Below are positions 7,111 to 59,155 of a DNA stretch of 64,000 nucleotides, one piece after another; within the stretch, counting starts at the first letter, position 1; each line of letters begins with the position of its first letter. The stretch spans positions 595 through 64,594 of the forward strand of contig JAFTST010000004.1 in the NCBI GenBank assembly GCA_017467165.1, in the 5' to 3' direction. The position numbers and the translations under genes were made by a program. Source of the stretch: Clostridia bacterium. Its GTDB lineage: Bacteria > Bacillota > Clostridia > Oscillospirales > CAG-272. Below the pieces are notes generated by a model that searched no databases, had not been told where the DNA came from, and saw only the letters and a program-made list of their open reading frames with translations.

Positions 7111-7875
7111 ATGCAGAATACAGTAGTTATAGATTACCTTACATTCGAGCTTTCCGCAGAGGAGAACAGCTATACCGTGGTTTACTGCGAGGAGGAGGCA
7201 GATAGGGTAGTTATTCCGAAGGAAATAAACGGACTTCCCGTTATGGGAATAGGCGAGGGAGCATTCCGCGGCTGCCTTGGGCTTACCGAGGTGGTTTTCC
7301 CCGAGATAGATATAGTCGACGCGCTTGTCAGTGGACTCAGCTTTGAGATTGACGACAGCGCCTTCCGCAGATGTATTTCTCTCACCGAGGTGACAATTCC
7401 CGACGGCGTGACGAGAATAGGCTGGGCGGCATTTGCCGAGTGCTTTAACCTTCGCTCGATAACAATACCTGCCGGCACCTTCGTCTCGAGCTACGTCTTT
7501 ACAAACTGCGGCAAGCTTGAGGTGGTCAGCGACCTTTCTGTGATTAGCGAGGGTGTCTTCAGCGATTGCACCGCCTTGAAGCATCTGCCTCTGGGCGCGG
7601 ATGTCACCGAGATATCCGAGTCTGCGTTTGAATATTGCACATCTCTTACCGACGTGGTTATACCCGCGAGAATAAATAGAATAGAGGCTCTCGCCTTCGA
7701 GGGCTGCTACTCGCTTGAAAGCGTGCGCTTTGAGGAGCCTGAGGGCTGGTATCTTTCGTCAAGCTATCATCCTGATAAGGAGTTTCCCCTTGACCTGACA
7801 AATCCTGAGAAAAACGCGAAGGATCTCGGCAGTATGGACTTTGACGACGGCGTTATCGCGTGGTACAGGAAATAA
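7111..7875 (+). CDS. BspA-type leucine-rich-repeat (LRR_5) protein, no signal peptide
   Basis: Repeating ~23-aa units of the form IPxGVTxIGxxAFxxCxxLxxITIP (e.g. VTIPDGVTRIGWAAFAECFNLRSITIPAG). Confidence 0.75.
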   Translation: MQNTVVIDYLTFELSAEENSYTVVYCEEEADRVVIPKEINGLPVMGIGEGAFRGCLGLTEVVFPEIDIVDALVSGLSFEIDDSAFRRCISLTEVTIPDGVTRIGWAAFAECFNLRSITIPAGTFVSSYVFTNCGKLEVVSDLSVISEGVFSDCTALKHLPLGADVTEISESAFEYCTSLTDVVIPARINRIEALAFEGCYSLESVRFEEPEGWYLSSSYHPDKEFPLDLTNPEKNAKDLGSMDFDDGVIAWYRK

Positions 7876-8004
7876 GAAAAAGAAAAAGAGAGGACATTTC
7901 GTCCACCGATTTGTTCTCTCTTTTTTGTGCATTTGTTAGTGAAAGCTCTCCGATAGGGATATCACGCCATTGTTAACCCTGCGTTGCCGCTTATCATATT
8001 GATG

Positions 8005-9023: not shown

Positions 9024-9446
9024 TCAAACGTTTTTTGCAAAAGCCTTATTGATTAATATACCGTTGATTGCATATGCTGTCGCTATTATTGCAACAACGA
9101 AGAAGTATATTAGAGCCTCAAAAAACAATCTAAATATTATTGTATAAAACAAAATAGACCACATTGAAACTGATAGCGAAAGCATTATCACTGACAAAAT
9201 TAAATTGTTTACTTTTAGTTTGTGTATAGTTTTTGTTTTGCCGGTTGTTTTTAAACACTTATAGCAATTAAGGTAAATAATATCAATCCATACAAAAAAG
9301 ACAGTATTAAGCAACAAGGCAATTACAGGAGGTATTGCTTTATTGACAATTCCGGCAAGCACTGTAAATATCGACATCATTACAGTAACAATGAGAGAAA
9401 ATACAAGTAAAAGCATTGTTATAATACACAGCTTGTTCTTTTTCAT
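9024..9446 (-). CDS. small hydrophobic membrane protein (4 predicted TM), unknown function
   Basis: 140 aa and almost entirely hydrophobic helices. GGAG lies 8 nt upstream. The coding sequence is markedly AT-rich compared with its neighbours. Confidence 0.5.
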   Translation of the reverse strand: MKKNKLCIITMLLLVFSLIVTVMMSIFTVLAGIVNKAIPPVIALLLNTVFFVWIDIIYLNCYKCLKTTGKTKTIHKLKVNNLILSVIMLSLSVSMWSILFYTIIFRLFFEALIYFFVVAIIATAYAINGILINKAFAKNV

Positions 9447-9790: not shown

Positions 9791-9864
9791 TGGCAGCGGA
9801 ACTAGGATTCGAACCCAGACATACAGAGTCAGAGTCTGCTGTGCTACCTTTACACAATTCCGCT
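9791..9864 (-). tRNA. tRNA-Gln (anticodon CUG), CCA encoded
   Basis: The reverse complement folds as a cloverleaf. Acceptor AGCGGAA/TTCCGCT, D-arm GTGT-AAAGGTA-GCAC, anticodon arm GCAGA-CTCTGAC-TCTGT (U33, CUG, A37), T-arm CTGGG-TTCGAAT-CCTAG, discriminator G, then CCA. 74 nt. Confidence 0.8.
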
Positions 9865-50816: not shown

Positions 50817-51371
50817 ATGAGCGGTTCAATAGGTATAAGGCTGACCCGTGCGAAGAAAAGCTATGATCTTGGCGCCTCGAAGTTTTTTGGCGCGCCGACG
50901 GTGCCACGCGCGTGGGACGGCGAGTTTTTTGAGGACGAGATATTTCTGTGTCAGATAAGGCTATCGGATATTGCCGAGCTCGACCGGGAAAACAGGCTCC
51001 CTCACACAGGGTATCTCTCGGTCTTTTTGTCGACGGGCACAGATGAGCTTGTGCCTATCGTCAGATATTTTGACGGCGAGCCCGAGCTTGCCCTTTCCGA
51101 CTTCAATAAGCAGGTCGAGGGCTACGAGAGCTTTAACGACGCCTACCTTGCGGAGTTTTTCTCTGCCGAGGAGGACTATGACGGAACGAGGCTTTTCGGT
51201 ATTCCGAGTGGCTGGTGCTACGATGAGGAGCCACCCAGCCTCCTTTTGCAGTATGACCCGCTGGATAACGAAACGGGCTTTCTCGATTATATGGACGGAT
51301 ATTTGTACCTTTTCTTCGGCGAGGACACAAATGACCTCTCAAAGATTAGCTTAATGGAGGATTTCAGCTGA
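50817..51371 (+). CDS. YwqG-family (DUF1963) protein
   Basis: SKFFGAPTVPRAWDGEFFEDEIFLCQIRLSDIA...LPHTGYLSVFL resembles the YwqG/DUF1963 pattern. Confidence 0.6.
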   Translation: MSGSIGIRLTRAKKSYDLGASKFFGAPTVPRAWDGEFFEDEIFLCQIRLSDIAELDRENRLPHTGYLSVFLSTGTDELVPIVRYFDGEPELALSDFNKQVEGYESFNDAYLAEFFSAEEDYDGTRLFGIPSGWCYDEEPPSLLLQYDPLDNETGFLDYMDGYLYLFFGEDTNDLSKISLMEDFS

Positions 51372-52037
51372 TGAGACTTTTCTTTAGCGCTCTGACAAAA
51401 TACCTTTTTGGGCTTTTGCTCGTGGGAGCGCTCATTTTTCTCCCTGCGGGAAGCCTCACCTTTTTTAACGGCTGGCTGTTCATCTGTCTGCTCTTCGTGC
51501 CGATGCTCTTTCTTGGAGCCTTCCTTTTGATAAAGCGTCCCGACCTTCTTGAAAAAAGGCTCAGCGCCAAGGAATCGGAGGGCGCTCAGAAGGGAGTTGT
51601 CGCCCTGTCTGCCATTATGTTCGTTGGCGGATTTGTCGTAGCGGGGCTTGACTTCCGCTTCGGCTGGTCGAGAGTTCCCACCTGGGCGGTGATTGTCGCG
51701 TCGGTTATACTGCTTGTTTCATACGGCTTGTACGCCGAGGTTATGAGAGAAAACGCGTATCTTTCAAGAACGGTAGAAATACAGGAAAATCAGAAAATAA
51801 TTGACACGGGGCTATACGGAATTGTCCGTCACCCGATGTATGCCGTCACCCTGTGGCTGTTTTTTGGCTATACCCTTGGTGCTTGGCTCGCTGTGGTCGC
51901 TTTGCTGCTTCGCCCCATACGTTATACTCCTCGTGGTCAGGATAATCAACGAGGAAAAGGTCTTAGATGCAGGGCTTGTCGGATATACCAAGTATAAGAA
52001 AAAAGTCAGATACAGGCTGATACCCTTTATCTGGTGA
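51371..52037 (+). pseudogene. isoprenylcysteine carboxyl methyltransferase (ICMT)-family membrane methyltransferase, interrupted by a +1 frameshift in a T6 run
   Basis: The N-part (51371 frame) reads ...DTGLYGIVRHPMYAVTLWLFF. The family-typical C-terminus AIPLVLGSLWSL...VRIINEEKVLDAGLVGYTKYKKKVRYRLIPFIW is in the +1 frame (stop 52037). The switch is at TTTTTT 51860-51865, and removing one T gives a continuous ORF of about 220 aa. Confidence 0.7.
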
Positions 52038-52162: not shown

Positions 52163-52522
52163 GTGATACATTATATGAAGCTTAACCCGAAGCCCTTTTC
52201 AATGATTGCCGAGGGGAGAAAAACTATTGAGCTGAGGCTCTACGACGAGAAAAGACAAGGGATTTCGCTCGGCGATGCTATTGTTTTCAAGAATACCGAA
52301 AACGAAAATGAGGTCATATCTTGCACGGTTAAAGGGCTGCATATCTTCCCGAGCTTTGATTTGTTATATAAATCCTTGCCGCTTGATAAGTGCGGCTATC
52401 TTCCCGAGGAAATTGCATTTGCTTCACCCGGGGATATGGAGCTCTACTATCCCGAGGATGAGCAGAAAAAATACGGTGTTGTCGGAATAGAGCTTGAGCT
52501 CGATAACCCTATTGTCAGATAA
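52163..52522 (+). CDS. ASCH-domain protein
   Basis: LNPKPFSMIAEGRKTIELRLYDEKRQGISLGDAIVF is the ASCH beta-barrel pattern. 119 aa. Confidence 0.65.
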   Translation: MIHYMKLNPKPFSMIAEGRKTIELRLYDEKRQGISLGDAIVFKNTENENEVISCTVKGLHIFPSFDLLYKSLPLDKCGYLPEEIAFASPGDMELYYPEDEQKKYGVVGIELELDNPIVR

Positions 52523-52532
52523 GGAATGTACA

Positions 52533-53039
52533 ATGAAAAACAATTTTACCAAGGAAGATATTAAAAACAGCGTTGAGTATCAGTGGAGAAAAAACTCTAT
52601 CGCGTGGCTTCTCGGCATTTGGGCGGTTATAGCGGTTGTGATGCTTTTCGCAACTCTTGCCGGAAGTCTTGGCGATATCAAATACATAGGTCTTAGCCTT
52701 CGGATCTGGCTCATAGTAATGGCGATATACAGCACAGCACTTCTGCCCTTCGCGGTGTTTTATTTTTATAAAATGATTTACCTCTTGAAGCACTACACGG
52801 AGTTTAATTCGTATGAGGTCGTGCTCGACAGGGTTTCCACCTCGTATGCTTATAAGGGCGCTGTGTACTACACAGTTACCTTCAATGACTCGGGAGCTTC
52901 AATACAGGTAAGCACCAATCCCTACTTTTCAAGCGGTATATTTGCAAGGTTCACCCTTGAGGATTATAACAACGAAAGGGTCGTTGGCTTATACGATAGT
53001 CAGATGGATAAGTTCTATATCATTAGGAAAGTAGATTAA
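52533..53039 (+). CDS. 2-3 TM membrane protein with small C-terminal domain, unknown
   Basis: Hydrophobic helices (IAWLLGIWAVIAVVMLFATLAG and LRIWLIVMAIYSTALLPFAVFYF). The start is placed at ATG 52533. Confidence 0.45.
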   Translation: MKNNFTKEDIKNSVEYQWRKNSIAWLLGIWAVIAVVMLFATLAGSLGDIKYIGLSLRIWLIVMAIYSTALLPFAVFYFYKMIYLLKHYTEFNSYEVVLDRVSTSYAYKGAVYYTVTFNDSGASIQVSTNPYFSSGIFARFTLEDYNNERVVGLYDSQMDKFYIIRKVD

Positions 53040-53061
53040 TTCAAAAAAGGAGGATACCAAA

Positions 53062-54156
53062 ATGAAGAAAATTATAGCCCTGCTCGTCATTGTCATAACC
53101 ACATTTTCGCTGTCCTCCTGCTTTCTGTTTGGAGGCGTTACCACCCATCCCGATATGGTTGAATACACCGAGAGAGAGGTTTTGGAGGTAGCGGAACAAA
53201 AATACGGCGTTGCCGAGTGGATATTTTTCGGTATGGAGCTTCGCGGCGAAGCAGGTTATGATACCGAAGGCGCCTTCAAGGTTGATTTATACGACGAGCA
53301 GTTTGGTACGGAATTTGTTGGTGGCGACAATATTGAGAAGGCTTTTTCCTCCTTTGCAGGTAAGAACGGAAATCACGATGTACAAGGTATGTACTCCAGT
53401 TTTCTCTGCTGTGTTGCTCTTGGTGAGCGCGCCGACGGCTCTCTGAAATTCGTTTATTATAACACCAATATACACAAGGATGCGAAAATTTTCGACACGG
53501 TAGGCGCATCGGATTACACCTTCGAGGTGTTGCCCACGGAGATTACAAGCGAGCTTTTAACAGTTGATTCAAGATGGACGGCTATGCAGCTGTTCCTCAA
53601 CGATTTCAAGAACGGACTCATCCCTGCAGGCTTCGTTTATTCGGGCGAGCGTTTAATAACACGGCGCTACGAAACATCCTACAGCTACGTTGAGCTTGAG
53701 TTTTATAAGGAAAATGGCGAGGTCGTTTACGATATATACTATACGAAGGACGAAAAAAAGCCCCGCGAAAGACGCCTCGTCTATTCCACCTCCGACCGCT
53801 ACGGTGTGATATACAACTACTACGGGCTTGATAAGTCTGAGTATTTCGATATTACAACGACTGTAACACAGAGCACCGAGCAGGAAAGCTGTATGTCATT
53901 GAAGGCCCATGTCGAAGCGAAGGAGATAGAGGGAAAGGTACTGTACTCGAGGCTTTTATACTCGGCAGAATACTACGTCAAAAAGGACAAGGGCCCCGTT
54001 TTGCACGGCACAGCGAGTGAAACGGTGACGGATAAGCTAGAGTTTGAGTGCGGCTGGATGCTGGATAAGATTGACGGTATAGACCATGCGGAAACGGCGA
54101 AATTCTACCTTTCACACTTCTATATCTTCTATGAAAAGAACGCAGAAGCCGAATAA
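53062..54156 (+). CDS. lipoprotein, unknown function
   Basis: Lipobox MKKIIALLVIVITTFSLSSC. GGAGG RBS. 364 aa. Confidence 0.6.
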   Translation: MKKIIALLVIVITTFSLSSCFLFGGVTTHPDMVEYTEREVLEVAEQKYGVAEWIFFGMELRGEAGYDTEGAFKVDLYDEQFGTEFVGGDNIEKAFSSFAGKNGNHDVQGMYSSFLCCVALGERADGSLKFVYYNTNIHKDAKIFDTVGASDYTFEVLPTEITSELLTVDSRWTAMQLFLNDFKNGLIPAGFVYSGERLITRRYETSYSYVELEFYKENGEVVYDIYYTKDEKKPRERRLVYSTSDRYGVIYNYYGLDKSEYFDITTTVTQSTEQESCMSLKAHVEAKEIEGKVLYSRLLYSAEYYVKKDKGPVLHGTASETVTDKLEFECGWMLDKIDGIDHAETAKFYLSHFYIFYEKNAEAE

Positions 54157-54171
54157 AAGGAGGCAACGGTA

Positions 54172-55143
54172 ATGAGAAAAACGCTTGCAACATTGTTGTT
54201 GCTCTCTCTTATTCTTTGCTTATTGTCAGGCTGTAACGGAATCGGCAATTATTACAGAATAGACGTGACGGGCGATAAGGACTCGCTGATGAAGCCGATT
54301 AAGTCGCACTATCAAGTAGGAGCGACGGTTGAAATAAAAGCGCATCCGGTTACCGACGTATCGTTACACGTATTTGTTAATGGCGAGGAAATTCCGATGA
54401 TTCATTTTGATTCGGATTATTGGGGCTTTGAGTTCGTAATGCCTGAAGAAAACGTCACTGTTCACTTAACGTACGATAATTTTTACGGAAAAGAGGAATA
54501 CGTTTTTGACGATCTGTGCTCTCTCAATTTTTTGATGAGTGAAATCACTAAGGTTTCGGTAAGAACGACAGATTATAGGGAGAAATACAGCTTTATTGAA
54601 ACCCGATACTCCTCTTGTCAGGGTGATATTGATAATTTCAAGGAGATAATTGAAGAAAAGCTGATAAAAGCAGATAACAACGTTGCTTCCGACGCTATCT
54701 GTGGGGGCGAATACAGCTTCTATTATGACACCGAATCTCACGGAGAAAGGGCAGAAACGCTTAGATTTAATGATAACTTCTTCACTTGGAGCGATTTTTC
54801 AAGCTGGCAGGCATTTAAGTTCGAGGATGAAAATTACGTTTTGCCTACAATAGAAAATCCCGATCTTATAACCTACTCATTCAGATATGACGGTCGAAGC
54901 AGTGACGTCAGAAGATATGATGACGAATCCTTTTCGATTGATTTCTTCGGTATTGGATCGGTAGAGTTTATTCCATACGAGGGAGAACCGATTGAAGCAA
55001 GCTTACCGTTTTATTTGGACAGCGGATACGGAAAAATCAATCTGTTGAGCCCGACGGTTTTCGAGCTTAACGGTGAGTGCTATGAAATTATTTCCGGCGC
55101 GGAAACCTGGGCATACAAATACTGCAACTTGGGAGGAAAATAA
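54172..55143 (+). CDS. lipoprotein with N-terminal YW(G/E)FxFxMP module, unknown function
   Basis: Lipobox LLSLILCLLSGC. Module VGATVEIKAHPVTDVSLHVFVNGEEIPMIHFDSDYWGFEFVMPEENVTVHLTY. Confidence 0.6.
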   Translation: MRKTLATLLLLSLILCLLSGCNGIGNYYRIDVTGDKDSLMKPIKSHYQVGATVEIKAHPVTDVSLHVFVNGEEIPMIHFDSDYWGFEFVMPEENVTVHLTYDNFYGKEEYVFDDLCSLNFLMSEITKVSVRTTDYREKYSFIETRYSSCQGDIDNFKEIIEEKLIKADNNVASDAICGGEYSFYYDTESHGERAETLRFNDNFFTWSDFSSWQAFKFEDENYVLPTIENPDLITYSFRYDGRSSDVRRYDDESFSIDFFGIGSVEFIPYEGEPIEASLPFYLDSGYGKINLLSPTVFELNGECYEIISGAETWAYKYCNLGGK

Positions 55144-55523
55144 TGAAAAAAATATTGTTTTTATTACTTACTGTTCTGTTAGCGGCTTCGCTATTCTCCT
55201 GCTCCACCCCTATCTATCCGGGATTGCCGGATATAAGCGAAGATCCGATGAAAGGCATCGAGATTTACTGTTGGCAGGACGGCGGCGAATGGAAATGCGG
55301 CGGCACGGTTGGCACGAATAGGATGAAAACCGACGAGGAAATCCGCGCCCTGCAGGTCGTTACAATTCCCGAGATGAAAAGAATTCTCGAACGAAAGGGA
55401 CTCACCGATTGCTTTGTTGTTCGGCTCGTTGACCTTTCGGGCGACGAGGTTGTATACCTTGACTTCGAGGAAAACCTTACGCAGATTACAACGCTTGAAA
55501 TGCAATTAGGCAGAGAAGAATGA
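55143..55523 (+). CDS. small lipoprotein, unknown function
   Basis: Lipobox LLTVLLAASLFSC. The start overlaps the upstream stop (TAATG). Confidence 0.55.
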   Translation: MKKILFLLLTVLLAASLFSCSTPIYPGLPDISEDPMKGIEIYCWQDGGEWKCGGTVGTNRMKTDEEIRALQVVTIPEMKRILERKGLTDCFVVRLVDLSGDEVVYLDFEENLTQITTLEMQLGREE

Positions 55524-55536
55524 AAGGGAGTATCAG

Positions 55537-56802
55537 ATGAAAAGAATACTGGCTTTAGTCCTGATAATAACACTTTGCTTATTCGCTCTTGTTTCCTGTG
55601 ATTTATTCCCGGAAAAGAAGAGGGTGAGCTGTAAGGAGTATAAAAACTGCGCCGTTTTCACTCTCGATTATTTTGAAGGCTCATATTCAGTTGAGCTTTC
55701 TCGCACGGGCCTTGGCGAGGGCGCGATTTATTATCAGATAAACCTTGAGCACGGTCGGCTGACTGTGAATTACAAGGACGCAGGCTTTATTCACAGCGAG
55801 CAGCCTCTTGGTGATTTTACCGCAGATGACGAAATGCCGATTATCAGCTCGGGCGGATATATAGAGGGCGACAAGATTGAGATTTCCTTTGGAACATTAA
55901 GCCCCGTTAAGGGTGAAATCATTATCGCCTTTACCGAGGATGCGCTGAACGATGCTCTGGAAAGCACGCAGCACGAGCATACTATTACATATGTTTCCGC
56001 CGGCGAGGCAGGACATTTTGAAAACTATACGTGCGGATGCCCCCACGACCACGGAGCTGTACCGCATTATGATGAAGATATTGATCTCATCTGCGATGCT
56101 TGCGGATATGATATGAACGCAGATTACCCACCCCTCGTAGATGAAACCGTTTCCTTGGCGCAATTTGCAAGCTGGCTCACCGAGCTTAACGCTGAAAGCG
56201 TTGCCGAGATTAAAACCACATTTGAATACGTAGGAGTTGCACCCGGCACACTCAAGGATATAAGCAGAACAACCGACAAAACAGTGATTGCAGATGTTCT
56301 TGAAAAATATGCGAGCGTGGAAATGAGACCTGTTGCTCCTGAAGAAACCTACATAGACGGCGGAAGTGCGTTTACGATAGAGTTTACACTCACAGATGGA
56401 ACGGTAAAGCAACTTCATTTTAACAACGGCTTCTACGCATACGGATTAGATGAGATCGATATATCCGCGCTCCGCTATTTTGAATTGTGTTCTATTCCTA
56501 CGCTGAAAGACTATGATAACGTCACAAAATCCAACGGATTTATTACCTACATAGGCACAGGCGAGGTATATGACAAGGACAACAATCTTGTATGCGAAAT
56601 TCCCATAGACGAGCTTGAATTTGATTATGATTTGGATTTGGATTTGCCCGATCTTCCGCCCTATGATTTGGCTATAAGGACTGAGTTTGGTGACCTTAAA
56701 TTTATCGCGCCCGATATATTCTATATGGAAACCGGTGAAGCGTGTGTTCTCGTCGGTAAAAACCTAGACGAATTGATTGCTTACGCCACCTCTGCCGAAT
56801 AA
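55537..56802 (+). CDS. lipoprotein with internal Cys/His module, unknown function
   Basis: Lipobox LIITLCLFALVSC. Module HEHTITYVSAGEAGHFENYTCGCPHDHGAVPHYDEDIDLICDACGYDM. Confidence 0.6.
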   Translation: MKRILALVLIITLCLFALVSCDLFPEKKRVSCKEYKNCAVFTLDYFEGSYSVELSRTGLGEGAIYYQINLEHGRLTVNYKDAGFIHSEQPLGDFTADDEMPIISSGGYIEGDKIEISFGTLSPVKGEIIIAFTEDALNDALESTQHEHTITYVSAGEAGHFENYTCGCPHDHGAVPHYDEDIDLICDACGYDMNADYPPLVDETVSLAQFASWLTELNAESVAEIKTTFEYVGVAPGTLKDISRTTDKTVIADVLEKYASVEMRPVAPEETYIDGGSAFTIEFTLTDGTVKQLHFNNGFYAYGLDEIDISALRYFELCSIPTLKDYDNVTKSNGFITYIGTGEVYDKDNNLVCEIPIDELEFDYDLDLDLPDLPPYDLAIRTEFGDLKFIAPDIFYMETGEACVLVGKNLDELIAYATSAE

Positions 56803-56811
56803 TCCTTAACG

Positions 56812-57360
56812 ATGAATGACGAGGAATGGCTGTACGAGAATTTAAAAGCTGCGTACAAGGCAGGTGAAACGGTAACTGTAAAGATAGAAATGGCTATTGA
56901 CCTCGGGTGTGTTTTCCTTGTTAACGGCAATGATATAGCTGACTGCCAAGATGTTGACGGACTGTATTGGGAATTCACATTTACAATGCCGGCGTGCAAC
57001 GTTGAGATTGATTTTAAGACCTACGACGGATTTTTGCCTGATTGGAACTATGGTATATTGATTGAAAGCTATTGGAAGCAAAACCTTGATGCTGATTACG
57101 TTTATATTGAAAATTATTACGGTGAGTTTTCGGGCGGCGCAATTGTAGCAATGATAGCATCAGGAGCTTATGACGACGCTGTTTGGGAAGAAACGATTGG
57201 CGATACAACCATACGCTATAACAACGGAAATTGCATTCTCGTTCTTTACGAGGGAGAATTTCATACGCTTACCGCCGCGTATGAAAACGGATATCTTTCT
57301 TTGAATGATATAGAAGCTATCTCTGACTTGCAAAAAGAATATTATCCATATTTATATTAG
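56812..57360 (+). CDS. soluble protein with YWEFTFTMP module, unknown function
   Basis: No signal peptide. AGETVTVKIEMAIDLGCVFLVNGNDIADCQDVDGLYWEFTFTMPACNVEIDFKTY. Confidence 0.55.
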   Translation: MNDEEWLYENLKAAYKAGETVTVKIEMAIDLGCVFLVNGNDIADCQDVDGLYWEFTFTMPACNVEIDFKTYDGFLPDWNYGILIESYWKQNLDADYVYIENYYGEFSGGAIVAMIASGAYDDAVWEETIGDTTIRYNNGNCILVLYEGEFHTLTAAYENGYLSLNDIEAISDLQKEYYPYLY

Positions 57361-57367
57361 AAGATAT

Positions 57368-57407
57368 AAAAAAGCCTGCGGCGCATCTTAGCGCGCAGGC
57401 TTTATTT
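57368..57407 (+). terminator. rho-independent terminator after the lipoprotein cluster
   Basis: AGCCTGCG...CGCAGGCT stem followed by TTATTT. Confidence 0.55.
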
Positions 57408-57572
57408 GCCAAAGACACACTTTCCCCGAAAAAAGTCCCTCGCAACCTAAAGTTGCGCGATAGTTGGTGGCGCTTTTCGGCGTTTGTTGGTAAAATATCA
57501 CCGTGAGGGCGACGGTTGCAATGAAGCGCTACGTATTTACCCTCTATCAAAAGAAAACGGAGGTTATTAATT

Positions 57573-59003
57573 ATGACAATCGGCGAGCGTATCGCAAAAT
57601 GCCGAAGGGAAAAGAACTTATCACAAGAATATATAGCCGAGCTGCTTGGAGTTTCGAGGCAGGCTGTATCAAAATGGGAAACAAATCAGACAGAGCCTGA
57701 CACGGGTAATCTGATAGGACTTGCAAGAATATTTGGCGTTAGCGTTGAATACTTGGCAAACGGAGAGGAAGAGCCCACGAGGGTTGTCTACGTGGAAAAG
57801 AATCTTCCCGTTTTCAAGATTATAGGCATTGTGCTTACCTCTCTTGGCGGTCTTTCTCTTTTGCTCGGCGCTCTTTTGCCATATATGCTTGGCATAGGTA
57901 TTGTCACCGTGACGTTTGGCTTACTGCTTCTGCTTCTGAAAAAGGACGGTCTAATTCTCAGTGGCTTTATCCTTGTGATTGGTGTTGCGCTCTTTGTGAT
58001 ACAAGGCATTTGGTTTGGCATCGACACGCCTATTATGTGCCTGATTGCCGCTATTTCGGTGGGATTGCCTATTCTGACTTACGCCATTATCAAGCTCGTG
58101 AAGAGGATAAAGGAAAAAGACCCTATAAAGAAGCTTAAAGATAATCCTACGCTTATTAAGAGAATCATTATTGTAATTGTAATTGCCGCTATCGTTATTA
58201 CGGCTATCGCTGTTCCTCTCAGTATAGCAGGCAAAAAACGAAGAAGCGCTATTGAAAAGGCTAAATTCTTTTCTTCGGAAAGGCTGTCGGAATTTATGGT
58301 TGCGGGCTTGCCTGCGCCGGTGGATATTGACTGTATCAATCTTAACAGCGAAACAATTTTATTTGACACCGATTCGGATGAATTTCACGAGTACCTTGAG
58401 TGCGTGTATAACTATTTAATCGGGAGAAGCTTCAAGCATCTCGGAACACGGGGCGAGGTTATATACGCCGAGGGAGAAGCAAAACAATACGCATTTTTAC
58501 CGCACGACAAGCACTTTTACTACGGTCCGGATAAGCACTCCGGGTTTAATTTAAGCACAAATCCCAACTCCTATTACTTTGTTTTTAGCAACAGCATTAA
58601 AAACGAAGAAAACGGCGAAATCGAGTGCTGTGTAATTCACATAGAGCGCGTAGAAAAATCCAAAGCTGTGATTGACGGTAAAACGTTCGTTTACAACACA
58701 GTAATGTCCGTTTATCGTGAAAGTATTTCGGAGGGTTACAAATATCCCACCTACACTATTGAATACGTGGAAAACGTTTTCCACGTTGACCTTGCTGATT
58801 ATTTGCTCCCAAATCAACCCACCTTCTCCCTGCCCGGAAAGGAAGTCACGATACGGATAAAGCCACAGAGCGAGAACTTCGAGCTTTGGATTGACGGCGG
58901 AAAACAAATTCAGCGCACCGCTGTGACAGATGAGTATTGGGAATATACCTTCACAATGCCCGAGCATAATATTAAGCTATTGACTCTACCAAAGGATTTA
59001 TAA
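57573..59003 (+). CDS. membrane-tethered XRE-family HTH regulator (HTH + ~5 TM + extracytoplasmic domain)
   Basis: N-terminus MTIGERIAKCRREKNLSQEYIAELLGVSRQAVSKWETNQTEPD (Cro/C1 HTH). About five hydrophobic helices (aa 80-230). The C-terminal ~240 aa end with VTDEYWEYTFTMPEHNIKLLTL. Confidence 0.75.
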   Translation: MTIGERIAKCRREKNLSQEYIAELLGVSRQAVSKWETNQTEPDTGNLIGLARIFGVSVEYLANGEEEPTRVVYVEKNLPVFKIIGIVLTSLGGLSLLLGALLPYMLGIGIVTVTFGLLLLLLKKDGLILSGFILVIGVALFVIQGIWFGIDTPIMCLIAAISVGLPILTYAIIKLVKRIKEKDPIKKLKDNPTLIKRIIIVIVIAAIVITAIAVPLSIAGKKRRSAIEKAKFFSSERLSEFMVAGLPAPVDIDCINLNSETILFDTDSDEFHEYLECVYNYLIGRSFKHLGTRGEVIYAEGEAKQYAFLPHDKHFYYGPDKHSGFNLSTNPNSYYFVFSNSIKNEENGEIECCVIHIERVEKSKAVIDGKTFVYNTVMSVYRESISEGYKYPTYTIEYVENVFHVDLADYLLPNQPTFSLPGKEVTIRIKPQSENFELWIDGGKQIQRTAVTDEYWEYTFTMPEHNIKLLTLPKDL

Positions 59004-59155
59004 CCCTGACGGCTCAGAAATCGCGCACGGGTACGGGCTAAACGCTCCCCTCGGGAAAACGAAAAGCAATCGTTTTTTTGCAATATAAGAAAAAACAAAA
59101 TAAAAAGCCTCCGTTTTGTCAAGAATTAAGTCAGATACAAAATGGAGGTAAATTT

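Follow-up and report, generated by a model that had tools for sequence, protein, structure and literature searches.

A conserved XRE-family transmembrane regulator behind a variable run of mosaic lipoprotein genes in Clostridia, with a proposed ectodomain-set activity

Introduction

Transmembrane transcription regulators (TTRs), in which a DNA-binding domain and a transmembrane (TM) helix lie in one polypeptide, are widespread, and some of them have co-encoded partners (PMC10269533). ToxR/ToxS, TcpP/TcpH, PsaE/PsaF and VtrA/VtrC are of this kind, each consisting of a membrane-tethered DNA-binding protein whose outer domain acts together with a co-encoded exported or membrane partner (PMC10269533). 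BcrR of Enterococcus faecalis, a one-component bacitracin sensor considered to act from the membrane, combines an N-terminal Cro/C1-type helix-turn-helix (HTH) with an anchor of four TM helices; it is described as sensing within the TM bundle and has no ectodomain (PMC13384398). The subject of the present study is an XRE-family TTR and the run of lipoprotein genes that precedes it on 64,000 nt of DNA from a Clostridia bacterium (Oscillospirales, CAG-272; assembly GCA_017467165.1, contig JAFTST010000004.1, positions 595 to 64,594 of the forward strand), a stretch referred to below as the window.

To our knowledge, TTRs are common, yet they are understood in few cases, nearly all of them from Proteobacteria or lactic acid bacteria, and signal reception by their outer domains is mostly obscure. 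A sensor that shares the type of its outer domain with exported proteins is found in the RsgI anti-sigma factors of cellulolytic Clostridia, where the outside domain is of the same kind as that of the exported proteins of the pathway and can have a ligand in common with them. RsgI is paired with SigI and does not itself bind DNA, and its outer domains are carbohydrate-binding modules of known specificity.

The genes considered here are the same-strand open reading frames (ORFs) of positions 52533-59003, named g1 to g7, and this low-GC block within the 64-kb window is called the island (Table 1). With moderate confidence, the locus is read as a conserved XRE-family TTR (g7) that follows a changeable series of mosaic lipoprotein genes, with a proposed activity that is set by the ectodomain of the regulator. 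From a module shared by three of the proteins, an earlier note on the window had suggested a self-contained envelope sensing or interaction system, probably acquired horizontally. The regulator and the lipoproteins of that description are retained below, the self-containment and the reading of the module as a private signature are given up, and the horizontal origin is regarded as unproven.

The regulator and its conservation

By its sequence, g7 is a TTR. It had been described as a 476-aa protein with an XRE-type HTH and five TM segments, and this is upheld by a match to HTH_3 over the full model length and by five hydrophobic 19-mers with Kyte-Doolittle values of 2.2-3.2. The lysine- and arginine-rich loops fall on the predicted cytoplasmic side, which fits a topology with the N-terminus inside and the C-terminus outside. 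The predicted ectodomain is formed by a membrane-proximal domain, here called the A-domain, and by a C-terminal module of about 60 aa.

A search with g7 minus its HTH returned 61 homolog clusters at 55-100% identity, most of them 471-477 aa long, and the HTH is present in every cluster long enough to reach the N-terminus. Variants of 558-562 aa carry two modules, and variants of 696 aa have a further domain after the module, of the g5C type otherwise seen in the lipoprotein array. The sources are metagenome-assembled genomes (MAGs) and metagenomes labelled Clostridia or Eubacteriales bacterium. Mean identity to g7 over 52 orthologs is highest in the HTH (0.91), followed by TM5 (0.85), the module (0.81), TM1-4 (0.80), the A-domain (0.76) and the loop (0.74). 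Constraint on the ectodomain is thus as strong as on the TM bundle.

An AlphaFold2 model of the ectodomain has a pLDDT (the confidence score of the model) of 83. Foldseek searches against the PDB with the whole ectodomain and with the A-domain alone gave nothing at E <= 1e-3, the best A-domain match (E 0.4) being noise, and the module gave only weak immunoglobulin-like matches (IPT/TIG, filamin).

A probable captured lipoprotein as ectodomain

The origin of the outer half of the regulator is indicated by its alignment with lipoproteins of related loci. Residues 195-380 of g7 align with residues 1-166 of lipoproteins in three of these (L011, L014 and L017) at 27-31% identity, with E-values from 1e-13 to 9e-15. 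As the alignment starts at lipoprotein residue 1, their signal peptide is matched by TM5 of g7, which no longer has the lipobox cysteine (PLSIAG-KKRR). The A-domain also occurs on two further lipoproteins (P0195, P0207) and, in related loci, on lipoproteins that neighbour the regulator, so that the sharing of domains is wider than the C-terminal module.

In a distant high-GC Clostridia MAG (locus L015), two adjacent genes stand in place of the fused regulator. The first (7207-7878) encodes 223 aa with about four TM helices and an HTH 47% identical to that of g7. It is followed, after a 14-nt gap with a ribosome-binding site, by the gene of a 193-aa lipoprotein (LCGC), which in its mature form consists of the A-domain (E 2e-10 and 31% identity against g7 residues 229-347). 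The occurrence of the same components in fused (g7) and split (L015) form is therefore Rosetta-stone evidence for a coupling of XRE-4TM protein and lipoprotein, and the split form suggests that the two halves act together. Judged from these alignments, g7 seems to join a BcrR-like XRE-4TM protein to a neighbouring lipoprotein whose signal peptide was turned into a membrane anchor. The existence of the same regulator as a fusion and, in one distant relative, as a pair predicts a physical partnership between regulator and lipoprotein that is directly testable.

A looser arrangement is seen in L023 (531-3219). An XRE-4TM gene of 201 aa is followed there on the same strand by genes for a PAP2 phosphatase and a methyltransferase, and then by that of an A-domain lipoprotein. 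With PAP2 as a neighbour, a connection to lipid carriers or envelope stress may be indicated.

The earlier note had also proposed that the lipoproteins communicate with the outer domain of the regulator. Shared extracytoplasmic domains (A-domain and module) and the L015 pair agree with the general part of this idea, whereas a link to the lipoproteins that now stand beside g7 remains a proposal.

The junction between the two halves permits a different reading. After TM5 (58206-58235, residues 212-221), a small-x-small motif, (A/L)SIA ahead of S/G-KKRR, is retained among the orthologs. If (A/L)SIA|(S/G)KK were a site for signal peptidase I, g7 would be a processed pro-protein whose ectodomain is released, the XRE-TM part would work by itself as BcrR does, and the fusion would merely ensure co-expression of both halves. 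The homology of TM5 to lipoprotein signal peptides, the retention of SIA-(S/G) across orthologs and the existence of a two-gene version would fit such processing, but cleavage of internal TM helices is rare and the lost lipobox cysteine fits a change to a permanent anchor. A released ectodomain is considered highly improbable, and g7 is treated below as a membrane-anchored fusion.

The shared module

The C-terminal module of g7, with the signature YWEFxFxMP, had been noticed in g3 and g6 as well, and the three copies are indeed related (pairwise BLASTP E-values of 3e-9 for g3-g6, 3e-5 for g6-g7 and 1e-3 for g3-g7). When every stop-to-stop ORF of the window was searched with a profile hidden Markov model (HMM) built from 14 instances, g3, g6 and g7 alone were matched (E 1e-28 to 2e-32, with 1.5e-28 for g3), the next match having an E-value of 1.3. 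On g3 residues 63-103, the Pfam family TcaA_3rd_4th (PF22820) scored 15.4 bits (E 0.019), under its gathering score of 27 bits.

Outside the window the module is far from private. Among 1.84 billion cluster representatives, the profile matched 2,959 proteins at E <= 1e-3, mostly giant surface proteins with many repeats and lipoproteins, and 674 of the matches had an E-value of 1e-10 or less. The top matches are proteins of 1-5 kaa with 10-23 tandem copies, which Pfam assigns to Flg_new_2 (PF18998, 'Divergent InlB B-repeat domain'), with scores of 406 bits for P0105 and 283 bits for P0094 among the retrieved repeat proteins. True repeats and module have the signature G-x-V-T-V ... Y-x-F-x-M-P-x-x-[DN]-V in common (in the repeats, Y-x-F-T-M-P and V-T), and hhalign of the module against true Flg_new_2 repeats gave a probability of 96.1% (E 3.2e-9). 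The likeness thus extends over signature, profile retrieval and profile-profile homology. The window copies differ in standing singly on lipoproteins and on the regulator rather than in long tandem arrays, and in having their own 'VNG..I' and 'YWEF' core; they also lie below the Pfam threshold, as none of the 14 module sequences reached the Flg_new_2 gathering score of 23.6 bits (best E 0.051). By these profile comparisons, the module is a divergent branch of the widespread and promiscuous InlB B-repeat/Flg_new_2 superfamily of surface domains.

The company that the module keeps elsewhere is in line with this assignment. The best 150 matches include 146 newly retrieved proteins, 111 of which are longer than 750 aa; 20 of the 35 shorter ones have a lipobox. 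The HTH of the regulator is absent from all 146, and the sole XRE-TM protein in the best 150 is a representative of the g7 family itself. Among these best matches the module thus behaves as a common promiscuous domain with no preferential co-occurrence with XRE-TM regulators, which is the first of the two arguments that the earlier note itself had named against its proposal. As an ordinary B-repeat-type surface domain, it is by itself no signature of a dedicated system.

The regulator promoter and a candidate operator

Upstream of g7, an alignment of five loci revealed three near-invariant elements, namely a palindrome, a conserved box and an extended -10 element (Table 1). Each of the 13 distinct regulator loci has a single copy of the palindrome GCAAC-N5-GTTGC and the box, about 130 nt ahead of the ATG of the regulator. 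A similar layout of palindrome, box and -10 element also stands upstream of the split regulator in the distant L015. No match to an Rfam family was found in 51.5-59.5 kb of the window, so the conserved element is no known RNA. From its position and conservation, the element at 57442-57496 is interpreted as the putative operator and promoter of the regulator itself.

The fluid array of mosaic lipoprotein genes

The products of g2 to g5 have a hydrophobic stretch within residues 4-24 followed by a lipobox of the pattern [LVI][ASTVIF][GAS]C (LSSC, LSGC, LFSC and LVSC, respectively). This is the sequence hallmark of bacterial lipoproteins, and lipidation of all four is predicted, in accordance with the four clean lipoboxes noticed before. 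The genes from g1 to g6 follow each other on the forward strand with spacings of 22, 15, -1, 13 and 9 nt. Coordinates and spacing of the series stand as first given; the count of six genes does not.

The difference arises from g5 and g6, which lie in the same reading frame, separated by a TAA stop and three codons. The codons after the stop read S-L-T-M-N-D-E-E-W, and in homologs a conserved block, 'S[IL]TMND..WLYE', begins upstream of the g6 methionine. Some homologs of g6 are lipoproteins or have g5-like sequence upstream of the g6-type domain, with P0002 and P0007 being single-protein fusions. The read-through of g5-g6 aligns over its full length with an intact lipoprotein of 590 aa (P0150), in which a tyrosine occupies the position of the stop. 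The series therefore consists of five genes, one of them split by a stop, and g6, which had been taken for a sixth, soluble protein, is no independent soluble protein; it is the tail of the g5 lipoprotein gene. As the split allele is found in multiple assemblies (P0001 on 5 contigs, plus L001), a read error is improbable.

The comparison with P0150 also shows how such genes change. Identity is about 99% over residues 1-145 and about 96% over the final 200 or so, but only about 35% in the central 250 or so. Near-identical ends around such a divergent middle suggest cassette replacement, and the alignment points to a recent exchange of the internal cassette by recombination.

The g5 part contains a Cys/His mini-motif, HEHT..H..C.C..H.D.D..CD.CGY (55972-56115, g5 residues 146-193), which is repeated one to three times in many mosaic lipoproteins (L006, L011, L014, L017, L009) and has no Pfam model. 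Metal binding outside the cytoplasm is a possible role for it. Lipoproteins of the g6 type (module plus g6C) occur in different regulatory operons of other Clostridia (L002 8755-13934, L005 6882-10648), beside an extracytoplasmic function (ECF) sigma factor, a putative anti-sigma protein without a Pfam match and a serpin. A link to an ECF sigma/anti-sigma pair was rejected for the present locus, which has no sigma factor.

Nine informative regulator loci were available for a comparison of synteny. In seven of these (the window, L006, L016, L017/18, L011/12, L014 and L024), lipoprotein genes on the same strand lead directly up to the regulator, and in L009 a Cys-motif lipoprotein lies downstream of the regulator in place of the upstream array. 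The genes beyond the array differ between loci, so the adjacency of array and regulator is kept across several contexts. The recurring cassettes are g4, f146, f138/f139, the Cys/His motif, g5N, g5C, g6C, the A-domain and the B-repeat module. The g4 gene (126 aa, about 80% identity) is present in five loci, and f146 in four, always as the last gene before the regulator. Of the synteny expected from the earlier description, arrays preceding the regulator were found, but the gene content is not fixed and differs in every locus. A genome scan that was dominated by the HTH pattern returned three loci, and a metagenome scan with a narrow A-domain alignment returned four short ones.

The most conserved neighbour of the regulator is g4, with orthologs about 80% identical in the arrays of L006, L014, L016 and L017. 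Canonical FTAC or LSSC boxes are found in g4 orthologs. Its homologs form 202 clusters at 77-98% identity, compared with 61 clusters for the regulator. The slot between an AAA_17 gene and tRNA-Leu(tag)/infC has different contents in two loci, namely the regulator in L007 (9328-12148) and g4, a g5-like lipoprotein and an M20 peptidase in L022 (9298-13078). The arrays of L006 and L014 begin directly after a tmRNA gene. Together these cases place the cassettes at variable sites next to tRNA or tmRNA genes, where no integrase is visible.

Among the remaining members of the array, g3 carries its module at the N-terminus and a private C-terminal domain. The g2 protein has no Pfam or NCBIfam match and no homolog in the fetched loci, and is thus unique to this locus among those examined. 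The g1 protein, for which two to three TM segments had been suggested, has two hydrophobic segments; in L020, where the regulator is missing from the vicinity, a homolog of 75% identity adjoins one of g4. Scans of all island proteins against Pfam, NCBIfam, PADLOC and PHROGs yielded only the HTH and the ASCH domain of the gene ahead of g1; PADLOC and PHROGs matched g7 in the HTH region only and g1-g6 not at all, which places the island genes in no defence or phage family. This ASCH gene heads the low-GC same-strand series, with g1 starting 10 nt downstream, and matches a PHROG of RNA-binding proteins (E 8e-20). It was not found in any related locus and is probably co-transcribed with the g1 series, yet it stands outside the conserved set. 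The lipoprotein transcription unit is closed by the intrinsic terminator that had been predicted 3' of the series, a stable hairpin with a T-tract.

Table 1. Positions of the genes, domains and regulatory elements of the locus (numbering of the window)
Feature	Position	Strand	Description and evidence
ASCH-domain gene, 119 aa	52163..52522	+	Pfam ASCH 28.8 bits (cut-off 21.2); GC 0.44
g1, 168 aa, 2 TM segments, no known family	52533..53039	+	Hydropathy peaks at residues 23-41 and 58-76
g2, 364-aa lipoprotein	53062..54156	+	Lipobox LSSC
g3, 323-aa lipoprotein	54172..55143	+	Lipobox LSGC; N-terminal B-repeat-like module, residues 35-106 (nt 54274-54489)
g4, 126-aa lipoprotein	55143..55523	+	Lipobox LFSC
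g5-g6, mosaic lipoprotein gene with in-frame TAA at 56800-56802	55537..57360	+	Lipobox LVSC
ORFs of the split gene	g5 55537-56802; g6 56812-57360	+	Same reading frame
g5-g6 cassettes			g5N, Cys/His motif (residues 146-193), g5C, B-repeat-like module (nt 56818-57039), g6C
Intrinsic terminator	57371..57408	+	Hairpin 57371-57403, dG -22.6 kcal/mol, z -3.6, then UUUAUUU
Palindrome GCAAC-CTAAA-GTTGC	57442-57456	+	Near-invariant, alignment of five loci
Conserved box GATAGTTGGTGG	57459-57470	+	Near-invariant, alignment of five loci
Extended -10 TGGTAAAAT (TGnTAAAAT)	57488-57496	+	Near-invariant, alignment of five loci
g7, XRE-type transmembrane regulator, 476 aa	57573..59003	+	HTH_3 and 5 hydrophobic segments
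g7 HTH	Residues 1-66, 57573-57770	+	HTH_3 (PF01381) 61.5 bits, cut-off 23; residues 7-61, full model length
g7 TM1-4	Residues 83-172, 57819-58088	+	Predicted segments 83-101, 104-122, 128-146, 154-172
g7 TM5	Residues 198-216, 58164-58220	+	After basic loop; aligns with lipoprotein signal peptides
g7 A-domain	Residues 229-400, 58257-58772	+	About 170 aa, membrane-proximal
g7 B-repeat-like module	Residues 409-469, 58797-58979	+	Extracytoplasmic C-terminus (predicted)

A model for the regulator and its neighbours

In the proposed mechanism, the regulator would stay in the membrane and bind GCAAC-N5-GTTGC, a palindrome overlapping the -35 region of the g7 promoter, resulting in autoregulation, and it would probably act on unlinked targets as well. 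Its activity would be set by the ectodomain, for which two modes can be envisaged. The ectodomain may recognise whichever envelope or extracellular ligand is bound by its lipoprotein paralogs, or it may contact these paralogs directly through homotypic interactions of A-domains or B-repeats, by analogy with ToxR/ToxS and TcpP/TcpH. The lipoproteins of the array are built from a small common pool of quickly recombining cassettes. The locus documents such a cassette-shuffling pool in uncultured Clostridia of herbivore guts, with possible relevance to how the surface of these organisms varies.

A bolder version would make XRE-4TM proteins and A-domain lipoproteins an undescribed Gram-positive envelope-signalling pair, split in L015 and fused in g7, with diversifying paralogs that tune the regulator homotypically and with the A-domain as a new sensor fold. 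This version is tentative and rather unlikely; if true, it would be a Clostridial counterpart of ToxR/ToxS with built-in variability of the partner.

Several findings weigh against an ectodomain that takes its cue from the array. The topology of g7 is a prediction, and the residues following TM5 are basic (KKRR), like those of the loops assigned to the cytoplasm. No known fold could be assigned to the A-domain, so that it points to no ligand. A strong terminator stands between the array and the regulator gene. No extra copies of the operator (up to one mismatch in the half-sites and up to two in the box) were detected near the lipoprotein genes; it lies solely at the promoter of the regulator, and any regulatory link to the array is therefore hypothetical. 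No two loci have an identical array set, and one of the candidate partners, g5-g6, is a nonsense-split gene, both of which are hard to square with obligate partners. The regulator occurs without a lipoprotein array in L007/L008. Conversely, g1 (75% identity), a 132-aa gene and g4 lie next to smpB in L020 without the regulator. The regulator is missing from L022 as well, where g4 and a g5-like lipoprotein fill the tRNA-Leu(tag)/infC slot that it holds in L007/L008. These arrangements and the variable arrays are also the reason why a self-contained system could not be upheld. Moreover, the loci come from related MAGs, so that seven of nine cannot be counted as seven independent events.

Many of the same observations would be expected if adjacency came without partnership. 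The array would then be a hot spot of duplication, cassette shuffling and decay of lipoprotein genes, for instance under phage or host immune pressure, and a one-off fusion would have given the regulator an ectodomain that senses something unrelated, with its neighbours outside the signalling. The array that differs at each locus, the replaced middle and the nonsense mutation of g5-g6, the solitary regulator and the single operator all agree with this, as do the occurrence of the same cassettes on many lipoproteins with no regulator nearby and of arrays beside tmRNA or tRNA genes also in the absence of the regulator. Against it, the split pair of L015 argues for joint working, the ectodomain is conserved like the TM bundle and unlike the shuffling neighbours, and the adjacency of array and regulator outlasts several changes of genomic context. 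Mere adjacency is possible but doubtful as an explanation, and a regulator with ectodomain-set activity in front of which lipoprotein cassettes recombine is preferred.

Base composition and the question of horizontal acquisition

The island has a GC content of 0.438 compared with 0.496 in the remaining window, which puts it in the lowest 1% among same-size sliding windows, and GC at third codon positions (GC3) is 0.48 in island genes and 0.59 in the 49 other ORFs (Mann-Whitney p = 8e-4). The AT-rich character that had been estimated by eye is thus statistically supported at the levels of both windows and codons, but the flanks have a GC content of 0.50-0.53 and not in the mid 50s as estimated. 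The low-GC stretch starts about 400 nt before the island and takes in the ASCH gene (52163-52522), and further low-GC patches are present at 8-10 kb and 62-64 kb. One ORF of 140 aa at 9024-9446 (minus strand, GC 0.30), which adjoins the sole tRNA of the window (tRNA-Gln, 9791-9864), likewise stands out in composition and may be an insertion.

The ICMT/PEMT-like gene immediately before the low-GC block (51371-52037) is frameshifted near 51,880-51,950; a homolog in L009 aligns first in frame 3 (residues 3-198) and further on in frame 1 (residues 166-223). The gene is either a pseudogene or the result of an assembly error. An imperfect 19-nt direct repeat, AAGAAAAAAGTCAGATACA (51996-52014) and AAGAATTAAGTCAGATACA (59121-59139), identical at 17 of 19 positions, brackets the block almost exactly and is thus suggestively placed.

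The deficit could have arisen by import of the 7-kb block from the ASCH gene to the regulator as a unit, and horizontal acquisition had been considered probable in the earlier note. The lower GC and GC3, the related cassettes at tmRNA- and tRNA-adjacent variable sites elsewhere, the bracketing repeat and the frameshift immediately upstream would all be consistent with this. Deviant base composition is, however, the only mark of a genomic island that was found. The window has no integrase, transposase or adjacent tRNA, and the repeat is A-rich and of a kind expected by chance (13 similar families in 9 kb). The GC content of the regulator follows that of the host, being 0.33 in a host of 0.34, 0.42 in hosts of 0.43-0.48 and 0.56 in a host of 0.57, which makes the g7 family a long-term resident of the clade, and orthologous loci likewise show a modest GC deficit. 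Import of the block as a unit is regarded as distinctly unlikely, and the claim of horizontal acquisition is not maintained. Recombination with a lower-GC sister lineage could be behind the 6-point deficit.

Comparison with known systems

RodZ resembles g7 in combining an XRE HTH, a membrane span and an outer C-terminal domain. It has a single TM helix and DUF4115, in contrast to g7 with its five TM segments and a palindromic site in its own promoter. An identity of g7 as RodZ was rejected as there is no DUF4115 match and the number of TM segments is five. The RsgI anti-sigma factors are alike in that a sensor shares its outer domain with exported proteins, and they differ in that no sigma factor is encoded at the g7 locus.

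The core of g7, an N-terminal Cro/C1-type HTH followed by a four-helix anchor, resembles that of BcrR, and the split relatives of L015 and L023 (201-223 aa, HTH and about four TM helices) have the overall architecture of BcrR. The complete g7 protein departs from it by an extra TM helix and an extracytoplasmic part of 255 aa, and no ABC transporter of the bcrABD type is present at the g7 locus. A tblastn search with g7 residues 1-221 against 72,556 plasmids, including 315 Enterococcus records, matched residues 1-82 only.

In its logic, the locus resembles the systems of the ToxR/ToxS type, which the regulator and lipoprotein of L015 and the fused g7 would fit by analogy. The components themselves are different. 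ToxR-type regulators have an OmpR-type winged helix and a single TM helix and are found in Gram-negative bacteria, whereas g7 has an XRE HTH and five TM segments and belongs to Clostridia; g7 also lacks a match to Trans_reg_C and is therefore not ToxR-like in its domains. Unlike in the ToxR-type systems, the putative partner of g7 is a lipoprotein homologous to the ectodomain of the regulator itself.

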